Assembly (NCBI GenBank): GCA_964473865.1
Contig: CAYYQN010000003.1
Location: forward strand, 2,545 to 66,544
Reading direction: 5' to 3'
Source of the DNA: an uncultured bacterium
Lineage (GTDB): Bacteria > Eisenbacteria > RBG-16-71-46 > CAIMUX01
DNA: 64,000 nucleotides
The number at the start of each line of letters is the position of its first letter. Position 1 is the first letter of the stretch. The notes under the pieces were generated by a model. The model was not told where the DNA came from. It searched no databases and worked only from the letters and a program-made list of their open reading frames with translations. The position numbers and the translations under genes were made by a program. Positions 12,413 to 14,810 of this stretch are shown piece by piece.

Positions 12413-12626
12413 AAGCGATCGTTTGTATGGTATTGTTAAACTGCGGCATCAGGGGGAGCGGGTCCTGCCGTCGGGAAGTACCCGCGTGTCCCACTTCCAG
12501 CTCTGGTGCAAATCCAACTACACCTTCCTGGAGGGAGCCAGCCACCCGGAGGAGCTGGTCGAGGCCGGCATCGCGCTCGGGTTGCCGGGACTGGCGCCGA
12601 CCGATCGCGACGGCGTGTACGGCGTG
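12413..12626 (+). repeat. direct repeat copy 1 (dnaE2 leader/5' coding), partner at 14597-14810
   Basis: ~214 bp at ~88% identity by manual alignment. Both copies contain the tandem element ATCGTT-N8-AT(C/T)GTT (gATCGTTtgtatggtATCGTTa). Confidence 0.8.
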
Positions 12627-12674
12627 GCGGGGGACCAAACACCCGCCTGCTACCCATTCTGCGGAAGCGCATGA
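12413..12674 (+). pseudogene. truncated duplicate of the dnaE2 5' end (leader plus first ~65 codons), terminating after 17 unrelated codons
   Basis: 12413-12626 is ~88% identical to 14597-14810. It encodes ...[45 protein letters not shown], then diverges and stops at 12672-12674. Confidence 0.7.
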
Positions 12675-12710
12675 ACCACGGCACGACCGGCGCTCCGGTT
12701 CCGGGTGTAT

Positions 12711-13901
12711 CTATCGCCGGAGAATCACAGAACCACTCCGGCTCTTCCCCTCGGCCTCCAACCTCCAGTAGTACACGCCTCCAGGAACGCGCACCCCGTG
12801 ATCCGCGGTTCCATCCCACGACAGATCATGTGAGCCCGCCGAAAGCACCCCGTCGGCCAAGGCGGTCAGGCGGCGACCGTCACTGGAATAGACGGCCAAA
12901 CGAACGATCCCGGCTGTGGCCAAATCGAACCGCAGGGAGGTTCGGTCTGCGAAGGGGTTCGGGACGCACCGCAGCATCGCGGTCTCGGTGGAGAACGCAG
13001 CGGTTGCATCAGACGATGGAAGTTCCACGAAGGCAAGACCGGTCACGATGCCGAAGACATCCGGGAGGAAGTCGTGGACATCGGATCCGTCCAGGTTCAT
13101 GTACATGATCTTCTCGCGGTTGGTTTGAACGGACTGACCCCAGTAGACCCTTCCGGAACCAAGATCGAGGGTGATCCCATCCGGGTTCAGATTGGCGCCG
13201 ACCACGTAGAGATCCTCGACATCGGAGCCGTCGAAGTCCGCCCGACGCACAACATCGACGACGTAGTCGGTCCAGTAGACCTTCTGCGCCATGACGTCCA
13301 AGGCAATGCTGGAGGGACGGTCATGGCCGGTCACGACGAAGACGGGGCTGCTGCCATCGAGATTCGAACGCATGATGGCGCCGGTGGCATCGATGTAGGC
13401 CGTGGTGAAGTAGAGCTTGCTGTGAAGCATATCGAGGGCGATGCCGCTACCCACCGGGGCGGTCATCAGCGTGATGGCGCCGGAACCGTCGAGGTGGGCG
13501 AAGCCGATTCGCTCTCCGCTCAAATCCGCCCAGTAGAGCCTGTCCGTGTCGTGATCCAGCGTGATCCCATACGGAAAGAGCAGGTCGGTGGCGATAATCG
13601 TCTCGATGTTGCTGCCGTCCAGGTTCGAACGTCGGATGACGTGATCGCTCACGTCGGTCCAATAGAGCTTTCCGGCCACATCGTCAACGGCAATTCCGCG
13701 CAACCCTCCGCCGGTGTTCACCACGGTCTCGAGTCCGCTTCCGTCGGGAAACACGCGGTGGATCGCTCCGTCGCTGAACGACGGGTTGAACACCTCGCCG
13801 AAGTACAGCATGCGGTCGGTGCCGGCGGCCGGCGTGAAGAGTGCCCCAAGACCCAAGAGGCAGAGGAGAAGCGATCCCGCGAGTCTTCGGAACGTTGGCA
13901 T
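12711..13901 (-). CDS. secreted YWTD (LDL-receptor class B) beta-propeller protein with T9SS-type CTD
   Basis: A GGGAGGA RBS precedes MPTFRRLAGSLLLCLLGLGALFTPAAG (signal peptide). There are five or six repeats of the KLYWTD...NLDGS type. The CTD is VPNPFADRTSLRFDL...GRRLTAL...WDGTADHGVRVPGGVYYWRLEA. The listed ORF start at 14210 is an upstream extension. Confidence 0.75.
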   Translation of the reverse strand: MPTFRRLAGSLLLCLLGLGALFTPAAGTDRMLYFGEVFNPSFSDGAIHRVFPDGSGLETVVNTGGGLRGIAVDDVAGKLYWTDVSDHVIRRSNLDGSNIETIIATDLLFPYGITLDHDTDRLYWADLSGERIGFAHLDGSGAITLMTAPVGSGIALDMLHSKLYFTTAYIDATGAIMRSNLDGSSPVFVVTGHDRPSSIALDVMAQKVYWTDYVVDVVRRADFDGSDVEDLYVVGANLNPDGITLDLGSGRVYWGQSVQTNREKIMYMNLDGSDVHDFLPDVFGIVTGLAFVELPSSDATAAFSTETAMLRCVPNPFADRTSLRFDLATAGIVRLAVYSSDGRRLTALADGVLSAGSHDLSWDGTADHGVRVPGGVYYWRLEAEGKSRSGSVILRR

Positions 13902-14596
13902 CGGTCCATCCTCCCTGTGCACGGATCGGGAAGTCACCGTGCACGAGCACAAGGCGCTGTGCCGCAGGCGCGGCCGCCGACTCGAGGGGCTCAGACTCAC
14001 AGGAGGAAACAGCGCTCGGGGGACCGTTCGGATGGAGCGCCATGAGCAGGCAGCGCGCCGGTCTGTTTTCCGGTGGGGATCATACCACGGACTGGAAGTC
14101 GGGAGCCAGCGCTCCGGCTTCCCCGCCACATGGAGCACCCAGCCGTGCGGAAGTACAGCCCCTTCTTCTCCTGCGCACGGGCGCCATCCGGCATCGCGCA
14201 TGAATAACACCGCCGATCACGGGAAACACCCTCCTGTCACCGCGGTGCGGCGCCCGGGCGTCTTCCTGCGGATGCTTCTCGCGTGGCAGCCTCGGCCGAG
14301 GTGGTCTCTGCGAGACGTCGACGGCCGGACTGGGGGGTGACCTTCTTGCACCGTTTTCGGCCCGGCACCGAACCTGTGCCCGAACACGCGGTGCACCCTT
14401 CACGGACTTGCTGGGCTGTTGTCCTGAGATTCCAGCCACCCTGCTCTCCCCGCACATGGCGGCTTGTGGTCGAAAGGACTGCGGCGAGCGCGCGAGCGCG
14501 GGTGGAGACCGAGGTGCGCGAGGATCCTCCATTCCGAATTCCAGGTAGAACTTATTGCCCCACTTCAGGTTGACGACTTGCCTTATTTTCCGAAAT

Positions 14597-14810
14597 AAGC
14601 GATCGTTTGTATGGTATCGTTACGCTGCGGCATCAGGGGGAGCGGGTCATGCCGTCGAGGAGTATCCGCATGTCCTACTTCCCCCTCTGGTGCAAATCCA
14701 ACTACACCTTCCTGGAGGGAGCCAGCCACCCGGAGGAGCTGGTCGAGGCCGGCGTCGCGCTCGGGTTGCCGGGACTGGCGCTGACCGATCGCGATGGCGT
14801 GTACGGCGGG
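14597..14810 (+). repeat. direct repeat copy 2 (authentic dnaE2 leader and 5' end)
   Basis: See copy 1. The two copies are separated by 2,184 bp containing the minus-strand YWTD/CTD gene. Confidence 0.8.

Follow-up and report, generated by a model that had tools for sequence, protein, structure and literature searches.

A secreted-protein gene between two copies of the dnaE2 5' end in an Eisenbacteria contig: a probable recombination scar with parallels in related loci

Introduction

Among the closest described parallels to the locus analyzed in this study, the 5' region of the error-prone DNA polymerase gene dnaE2 of an uncultured bacterium (GTDB lineage Bacteria; Eisenbacteria; RBG-16-71-46; CAIMUX01), are the integrative elements targeting dusA or prfC, which leave a native stub on one side and supply a promoter and N-terminus on the other (PMC8409611). 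In those elements and at dnaE2 alike, the gene runs from a second promoter and 5' segment located beside the insert, a stub is found at the other junction, and direct repeats are present. The dusA/prfC-type elements comprise 20-100 kb, encode an integrase and a recombination directionality factor (RDF) by the att site, and are characterized by a short core and a diverged N-terminus (61% over 35 aa), whereas the insert described here, in which a single secreted-protein gene but no recombinase was detected, is 2 kb long, is flanked by a 226-bp repeat of 92.5% identity, and has breakpoints that vary. The whole stretch of DNA analyzed, hereafter the window, comprises 64,000 nucleotides (assembly GCA_964473865.1, contig CAYYQN010000003.1, positions 2,545 to 66,544 of the forward strand).

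Displacement of a resident gene part by homology-facilitated illegitimate recombination (HFIR), leaving orphan remnants, is an accepted model for type VI secretion system (T6SS) and Rhs loci and has been proposed also for contact-dependent inhibition (CDI) systems (PMC5361080). Vibrio cholerae T6SS arrays and Rhs/CDI orphans share with the window one conserved anchor, one illegitimate joint, trapped non-homologous DNA, a displaced resident remnant that is kept and decays, and recurrence at one locus across strains (PMC5361080). In those systems the anchor is the constant 5' part of the gene, and displaced 3' ends and immunity genes, which are selectable, gather downstream (PMC5361080). In contrast, in the window the anchor is the gene body, and the displaced promoter and 5' end lie upstream with no evident selected role.

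Campbell-type integration of a circle carrying a 5' gene fragment yields a truncated copy with a promoter, then the insert, then a complete copy with a promoter, the direct repeats being the cloned homology. This predicted product matches the arrangement in the window. The two differ in that nothing resembling a circular element, a replicon, or a vector can be seen here, and a circle would need illegitimate circularization of chromosomal DNA.

With respect to regulation, imuA-imuB-dnaE2 form a core SOS unit (PMC4951493). An SOS mutagenesis cassette that is split into imuA-imuB and dnaE2 and has a LexA operator of its own was reported by Erill et al. (2006), as far as its citation in PMC4951493 conveys. 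Compared with the cassette as cited there, the locus in the window similarly has dnaE2 apart from imuA-imuB and a LexA-motif-like box in front of it, the box also preceding imuA or imuB in relatives; it differs in that the box in the window reads GATC instead of GAAC and that imuA and imuB are missing from the 64 kb.

We propose that the dnaE2 locus in the window carries a scar of a known kind at a place where it had not been noted before, an ordinary rearrangement in which about 2 kb of DNA containing a YWTD beta-propeller gene probably recombined in front of dnaE2, the incoming DNA bringing its own promoter and 5' end. The locus offers a clean, datable example of accessory DNA inserted beside a conserved gene without killing it, and the recurrence of the pattern, together with a candidate SOS box in a little-studied phylum, adds some value to it.

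Results and discussion

The dnaE2 5' end is present twice

A repeat search of the window paired positions 12374-12633 with 14558-14817 (260 nt, 88% identity), and blastn and Smith-Waterman alignments delimited a core consisting of a gapless direct repeat of 226 bp, 12408-12633 versus 14592-14817, with 17 mismatches (92.5% identity, E about 3e-93). An initial annotation, prepared from the sequence alone, had reported a direct repeat of ~214 bp with ~88% identity; the repeat lies close to where it was placed, and the core is longer and less diverged. The copies are offset by 2,184 bp start to start and separated by 1,958 bp rather than by the 2.2 kb first given. The ends, which the initial annotation had left to a self-comparison of the window, are sharp: the flanks of the core align on both sides like shuffled sequence (scores of 33 and 27 versus shuffle means of 29 and 31), and the dnaE2 5' repeat is the only repeat of at least 60 nt in the whole 64 kb. 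A rightward extension of the repeat through an 18-nt deletion, relying on a shared GGGACCA, was rejected as not significant.

The repeat unit consists of 78 nt located 5' of the annotated dnaE2 start and of codons 1-49 (56 when counted from an upstream in-frame ATG). It was thus correctly recognized at the outset as the dnaE2 leader, ribosome-binding site, and 5' end, while the ~65 codons then assigned to it reach too far. Near its left edge each copy carries a conserved operator/promoter-like box, CGATCGTTTGTATGGTATTGT in copy 1 (12416-12436, plus strand), which scores 30.1 with a position weight matrix (PWM) built from the boxes of relatives, and CGATCGTTTGTATGGTATCGT in copy 2 (14600-14620, plus strand), which is conserved upstream of dnaE2 in relatives.

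Copy 2 belongs to an intact dnaE2 gene

Copy 2 (14592-14817, plus strand), as delimited by the blastn and Smith-Waterman match, comprises the box, leader, and codons 1-49 of the live gene. It supplies the box, the Shine-Dalgarno (SD) sequence, the ATG, and codons 1-49 in frame, and dnaE2 stays intact. Copy 2 thus forms the functional 5' part of a dnaE2 gene that stands alone and encodes an error-prone DNA polymerase of 1,101 aa (14670-17975, plus strand; NCBIfam and Pfam). The protein reaches 1302.6 bits with the NCBIfam model NF004225 (cut-off 939), while the best DnaE1 model, NF004226, gives 644.7 bits, under its cut-off of 1002, and all five Pfam domains are present in order (PHP, DNA_pol3_alpha, finger, HHH_6, and OB), which bears out the earlier view that copy 2 reads on into full-length dnaE2. 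An identical 1,101-aa protein starting at the ATG at 14670 has been called at NCBI on a 171,170-bp contig. The leader offers two combinations of an SD sequence and ATG, one at 14649 (in frame, preceded by GGGGGAG) and one at 14670 (preceded by GAGGAG). The mates of this protein in its 90% identity cluster are C-terminal fragments and are uninformative. No imuA or imuB was found in the 64-kb window by tblastn with ImuA and ImuB of the related locus L002, a search that covered the window; split arrangements of these genes are known.

The window DnaE2 also contains an insertion of ~27 aa (codons ~58-84, 14841-14921, plus strand), located 8 codons past the right end of the repeat and absent from the related proteins or loci P0001, L001, L002, and L006 (labels L and P denote our entries). 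The insertion looks old, because its GC content at third codon positions (GC3) matches that of the rest of the gene; it may belong to the scar or lie there by chance.

Copy 1 is a decaying stub

Copy 1 (12408-12633, plus strand; gapless match to 14592-14817) likewise comprises the box, leader, and codons 1-49. When it is searched by tblastn with DnaE2 residues 1-48, the identity amounts to 87.5%. What is left is an open reading frame (ORF) of 62 aa (12486-12674, plus strand), read as a pseudogene, with a GTG start, 49 dnaE2 codons, and 13 unrelated codons; its stop codon is at 12672-12674 and no further dnaE2-like sequence follows. The initial annotation was right that copy 1 stays in frame, and the unrelated codons before the stop number 13 rather than 17. 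The stub peptide matches NF004225 and the PHP domain as a fragment only, and the exact peptide is not among the called proteins of the public collection.

The start signals differ between the copies: the ATG at 14649 corresponds to CTG (12465), the ATG at 14670 to GTG (12486), and the SD sequence GAGGAG to GGGAAG. A divergent patch had been said to remove both the ribosome-binding site and the ATG of copy 1; both ATGs are indeed changed, while the SD sequence is only weakened, and the GTG at 12486 remains a possible translation start. Over 148 coding positions the copies differ at nine, eight of the differences being non-synonymous (in seven codons, start included) and one synonymous, in a segment with about 109 non-synonymous and 38 synonymous sites. 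With P0001, P0006, L001, L002, L006, and L008 as outgroups, the states derived in copy 1 are the ATG>GTG start, Y3H, P5Q, V29I, L38P, and R49G in the coding part, and ATG>CTG at 12465, GAGGAG>GGGAAG, and TATCGT>TATTGT in the leader. The sole derived coding change in copy 2 is synonymous (GAC>GAT, codon 42), and for the difference in codon 47 the outgroups give no polarity. The substitution pattern agrees with one neutral and one constrained copy and not with two functional alleles, and the suggestion that the differences reflect decay of a non-functional copy agrees with the polarization. Because copy 1 retains only 49 homologous codons, has lost its start signals, and has coding changes that are mostly non-synonymous, these data show it to be a dead stub, cut off at codon 49 and decaying as a pseudogene. 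Its annotation should read pseudogene fragment, not small PHP-domain protein.

The junctions are reproduced in a second assembly

The source of the window is a metagenome-assembled contig, and the arrangement might in principle result from two strain variants joined in series or from a mis-resolved repeat. The initial annotation had named missing read support at both junctions as the sign of such an artifact. The Logan contig L089 (run SRR12133404, 2,175 bp) is identical to window positions 12540-14714 (100%) and spans the joint between stub and cargo, the entire cargo, and the joint between cargo and copy 2, with copy-specific variants on both sides, so that the inner junctions are reproduced in an independent assembly. 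Both ends of L089 fall within the 69-nt stretch in which the copies are free of mismatches, as expected of a short-k graph; this stretch leaves the outer links unresolvable in a k=31 graph, and support for those links comes from the 171-kb contig. On the inner junctions two independent assemblies agree.

Several further observations argue against an artifact. Functional alleles of two strains would differ mainly synonymously, whereas here eight of nine coding differences are non-synonymous, and the polarizable changes affect the copy without the remainder of the gene. On the alternative path through the graph, which yields a single hybrid copy and a circle of 2.18 kb, the damaging changes would be distributed over different molecules. 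In addition, the same architecture is found in the unrelated assemblies L001 and L016. An assembly artifact is therefore extremely improbable, and the data show that the repeat junctions are real. As a practical consequence, repeats of 226 bp can break short-k assemblies, and, with their identical core of 69 nt, they can delete the YWTD gene by homologous recombination.

The segment between the copies

The intervening segment, or cargo (1,958 bp, 12634-14591), is unlike the flanks of the other copy. It carries on the minus strand a gene of 396 aa (12711-13901; Pfam) encoding a YWTD (LDL-receptor class B) beta-propeller with a FlgD-Ig/type IX secretion system (T9SS)-type C-terminus. The protein matches PF00058 Ldl_recept_b (E 8e-21) and FlgD_ig (31 bits, cut-off 27), and stays below the cut-off of the T9SS tail model TIGR04183 (18.2 versus 23); its N-terminus, as read by eye from the sequence and not by a predictor, is a hydrophobic, signal-peptide-like stretch, and the gene is preceded by the SD sequence GGGAGGA. 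The gene, its strand, and its own ribosome-binding site are thus as initially annotated; the T9SS tail named there scores above the cut-off of FlgD_ig and below that of TIGR04183. The exact protein is present in NCBI and Logan. Its nearest homolog (P0122, Candidatus Eisenbacteria; 51% identity) is located among secreted-protein genes, not adjoining dnaE2.

Between the YWTD start and copy 2 lies a non-coding spacer of 690 bp (13902-14591; by GC3 and Pfam), in which no frame shows a GC3 excess and no ORF gives a Pfam match at E<=1, and which is unlike the loci of relatives. The GC content is 0.632 for the intervening segment and 0.618 for the YWTD gene (7th percentile) compared with a window mean of 0.657 (sd 0.027), by which the gene is not clearly a foreign island. 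A search for integrase and transposase domains in the ORFs of the cargo, those of the spacer, and the long ORFs scanned with Pfam at 1-25 kb of the window found none, and no terminal inverted repeats border the 1,958-bp segment. With integrase, transposase, and inverted repeats all lacking there, the YWTD segment bears no sign of being a mobile cassette. Insertion of a transposon or insertion sequence was rejected on these same grounds, i.e., no transposase and no terminal inverted repeats, and because 226 bp far exceeds a target-site duplication of 2-14 bp. Comparison of the region upstream of the stub, the cargo ends, and the DnaE2 insertion with the loci of relatives (blastn and tblastx) returned GC-rich noise only.

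Related loci and recurrent stubs

The DnaE2 proteins of relatives share with that of the window 85% (P0001), 79% (L001), 78% (L002-L005), 75% (L006/L007, P0005, and L174), 69% (L008), or 66% (L173, Candidatus Eisenbacteria) identity. A single dnaE2 5' end with no YWTD gene upstream was found in L002, L006, L008, L173, and L174, which is the single-copy state that the initial annotation expected in related genomes. According to its gene table, the P0005 contig has an intact, overlapping imuA-imuB-dnaE2 operon. In L174, dnaE2 directly follows an upstream ORF that is taken, from its position, to be a putative imuB, and in L173 the order is imuB, a 166-aa ORF, and dnaE2. In other relatives different genes occupy the upstream position: an ABC transporter inserted between imuB and dnaE2 (L002), peptidase (S8) and radical-SAM genes between imuB and dnaE2 (L006), a HepT/MNT pair (L008), and a VF530 gene (P0001). 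The YWTD gene is absent from all of these loci, and a single dnaE2 5' end is the rule among them. With neighbors that change from relative to relative and with three independent stubs, the DNA immediately 5' of dnaE2 behaves as a variable hot spot in this poorly known lineage.

Two of these stubs are found outside the window. In L001 (7895-9917) a repeat of about 225 nt with 80% identity (7895-8118 versus 9694-9917), comprising the box, leader, and 38 codons, encloses the genes of an AbiEi/AbiEii pair, which lie on the plus strand like dnaE2. In its stub the ATG has become ACG, the box is degraded, and the invariant HP motif carries H20Q/P21S; the stub ends 7 codons past the break. In L016, a metagenome contig of lower GC content, a 64-nt relic of dnaE2 codons 13-34 (3336-3399; 81% identity, E 3e-13) follows purK at a distance of 74 nt and precedes the live dnaE2 by about 290 nt, with no gene between. 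In a DNA alignment the window and L001 copies cluster by genome, and their right ends differ, at codon 49 and codon 38, respectively, from which the two events are judged independent. In both, the repeat begins on its left side 4-8 nt before the box. Stubs are rare overall but present in two of the seven lineages with DNA in the window's own clade. No further convincing stub was found among 77 loci from metagenomes and 68 from species representatives, all with 1 kb or more of upstream DNA, the latter from distant phyla, taken from among the matches listed, and serving as a background set only. A metagenome scan with the DnaE2 N-terminal peptide returned nothing closer than 78-82%, and a scan of viral contigs returned no dnaE2 5' fragment.

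Some additional features of these loci were observed. The upstream regions compared (L002:7700-9466, L006:1815-5765, L008:4237-5126, and L173:238-5246) differ in content throughout, and the DNA 5' of dnaE2 often carries toxin-antitoxin or defense genes (HepT/MNT, PIN, BrnT/BrnA, and AbiE). An ORF of 166-167 aa lies directly 5' of dnaE2 in L003 (9478-9981), L004 (1864-2367), and L173 (7473-7973); in L003 and L004 it overlaps a tandem repeat of the CCTCCGAGG type (PLSYPLSY...) and may be spurious or an unrecognized mutasome-linked gene. Multi-copy repeats of about 60-110 nt in both orientations include part of the dnaE2 leader region in two unrelated metagenome loci, L028 (3264-3652 and 6674-6822) and L035 (1874-6850); they look like miniature inverted-repeat transposable elements or repetitive extragenic palindromes, not dnaE2 stubs.

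The recurrence of the pattern bears on whether the window holds a site-specific integrative element at the dnaE2 5' end, with the copies as attL and attR and an integrase lost or acting in trans. The architecture recalls the dusA/prfC-targeting elements, SXT at prfC among them, the pattern occurs in three lineages that differ in cargo, which in one case is an AbiE defense/toxin-antitoxin pair typical of islands, and the left repeat edges of the window and L001 take the same position with respect to the box. However, the crossover cores would have to be the right ends, and these differ; a near-identical repeat of 226 bp does not correspond to a short core plus a diverged mimic, and no viral contig carries a dnaE2 5' fragment. 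Neither integrase, RDF, nor transposase was found in the 2-kb cargo or the scanned long ORFs at 1-25 kb of the window, and the 1.6-kb cargo of L001 contains no recombinase domain. We regard such an element as unlikely, and the locus was not filed under the dusA/prfC-type family, because a recombinase and a common core were sought and not found.

A probable mechanism

Any mechanism has to accommodate a 226-bp duplication, a right end specific to each event, a common left end by the box, and the lack of recombinase genes in the ORFs scanned. The simplest reading, which we consider probable, is that of a scar left by recombination with incoming DNA. The incoming segment would have begun just downstream of the YWTD gene and comprised this gene, the 690-bp spacer, and a dnaE2 promoter and 5' end of its own. 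An illegitimate join would have connected resident codon 49 to the 3' flank of the YWTD gene, and the other side would have been resolved by homology within dnaE2. Such a process would be HFIR or, equivalently, single-crossover integration of a circularized fragment. The resident promoter and first 49 codons would thereby be stranded upstream as a stub, while dnaE2 would stay intact and regulated. The left end of the repeat would mark the limit of homology between donor and resident, i.e., the upstream limit of the promoter-gene unit, as suggested by the upstream neighbors, which differ in every relative. Conservation between lineages begins at the box, as would be expected of incoming DNA that had only the promoter-gene unit in common with the resident locus. 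An HFIR scar is recognized by non-homologous DNA with homology to the resident locus on one side, an abrupt, homology-free joint on the other, and a retained resident remnant; in the window the edges are sharp, the flanks are dissimilar, and the stub is kept, and the same pattern is seen in L001 and L016. We infer both the direction of the event, incoming DNA versus duplication in situ, and the type of recombination. The initial proposal, a secreted-protein segment inserted at the dnaE2 5' end by duplication or recombination, accords with the reproduced junctions, the single-copy state of relatives, and the polarized decay.

A purely in-genome origin would involve either a tandem duplication of the stretch from the YWTD gene to codon 49, after which the first YWTD copy was deleted, or template switching during replication, by which the promoter and 5' end were copied to an upstream position. 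It is favored by the slight depression of the YWTD GC content below the window mean, by a genome full of similar FlgD_ig-tailed genes, and by copies that were nearly identical when formed, the polarizable changes being nearly all in copy 1. It requires, however, two events, with a deletion ending within a few bases of the box, a coincidence that must recur in L001, and the DNA upstream of the stub retains nothing of another YWTD copy or the 690-bp spacer. We consider this origin improbable.

Several observations weigh against recombination with incoming DNA. No conspecific genome was found that has the empty site or the donor arrangement, in which a single dnaE2 would directly follow the YWTD gene; among DnaE2 proteins with available DNA the closest is 79% identical, and the nearest YWTD homolog is not by dnaE2. 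Almost all polarizable differences are derived in copy 1, which implies copies nearly identical at the time of the event, a situation that in-genome duplication and a donor belonging to the same population fit equally. Stubs were detected in only three of roughly 150 dnaE2 loci. Finally, the repeat contains a mismatch-free stretch of 69 nt (12510-12578 and 14694-14762; P = 0.028 for 17 randomly placed mismatches), which hints at gene conversion between the copies or at residual constraint, either of which would blur the dating.

An extension of recombination with incoming DNA would be that the dnaE2 5' end is a preferred docking site for integrase-less gene capture, defense and toxin-antitoxin modules included, in an Eisenbacteria-like clade. 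We rate this generalization as very unlikely. If it were true, the SOS promoter and first ~40-50 codons would form a portable homology arm of the incoming DNA, and accessory genes would have been slotted in repeatedly without inactivating the mutasome polymerase, the stubs marking the rounds.

A candidate SOS operator and the question of a stub function

The box shared by the two copies follows the conserved form CGAACATTTGTATGGTATC, which precedes dnaE2 in L001 (CGAACATTTGTATGGTATCAT), L006 (TGAACATTTGTATGGTATCCT), and, as a variant, L008, imuA in L002 (CGAACATTCGTATGGTATGCT), and imuB in L038. In about 2 Mb of fetched loci, the PWM scan returned, beyond the known boxes, two further sites only: one in L038, 160 nt before imuB, with the palindromic variant ATAC-N4-GTAT, and one in L097, about 900 nt upstream of an imuA match, with the palindromic variant GTAC-N4-GTAC. 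The form CGAAC-N4-GTAT... resembles the LexA motif GAAC-N4-GTTC, and the version in the window is GATC-N4-GTAT. From these resemblances we infer that the box may be an SOS operator overlapping a TATnnT -10 hexamer, which would make it a candidate operator for a phylum without any defined one. A scan of positions 12000-15000 for sigma-70 promoters and intrinsic terminators found nothing, an Rfam scan of 11000-16000 found no family in the dnaE2 leader, and RNA folding yielded z near 0 for the two leaders as well as for the 3' flank of the YWTD gene, with no structured leader and no clear terminator.

The state of the box in copy 1 raises the question of whether the stub is kept for a function, as an SOS-inducible antisense promoter into the YWTD gene, a LexA-titrating decoy, or a source of the 62-aa PHP-fragment peptide. 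The box is nearly intact, with one derived change (C to T) within the TATnnT hexamer, and a TTGAAA hexamer is located 19 nt upstream of the resulting TATTGT; moreover, the GTG at 12486 could initiate, and the 69-nt core has remained free of mismatches (P = 0.028). Against this, both ATGs are mutated, the SD sequence is weakened, and the derived changes P5Q, L38P, and R49G hit conserved residues. Stubs are not maintained, the box and start of the L001 stub being destroyed and L016 retaining a mere relic. The orientation of the cargo is also inconsistent with a common logic, antisense to the stub in the window and sense in L001, and the leader RNA has z about 0 and no Rfam match. A retained function is therefore highly improbable.

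Other features of the window

Six ORFs with FlgD_ig/Por_Secre_tail matches lie within 22 kb of the window (1594-3945, 3327-5420, 6591-7760, 9139-10839, 12711-13901, and 19814-22246). They include beta-helix, purple-acid-phosphatase-like, GH44, and YWTD proteins; some of the tails score below the cut-off, and two of the ORFs overlap. The organism appears rich in T9SS-type cargo. In addition, a sub-threshold match to the c-di-GMP-II-GAG riboswitch (RF03169; 24.5 bits, gathering threshold 40), in which many consensus nucleotides are kept, was observed at 11141-11222 on the minus strand. It is located between a Calx-beta-like ORF and the beta-helix/FlgD_ig gene at 9139-10839 (minus strand), about 300 nt 5' of the longest start of the latter.

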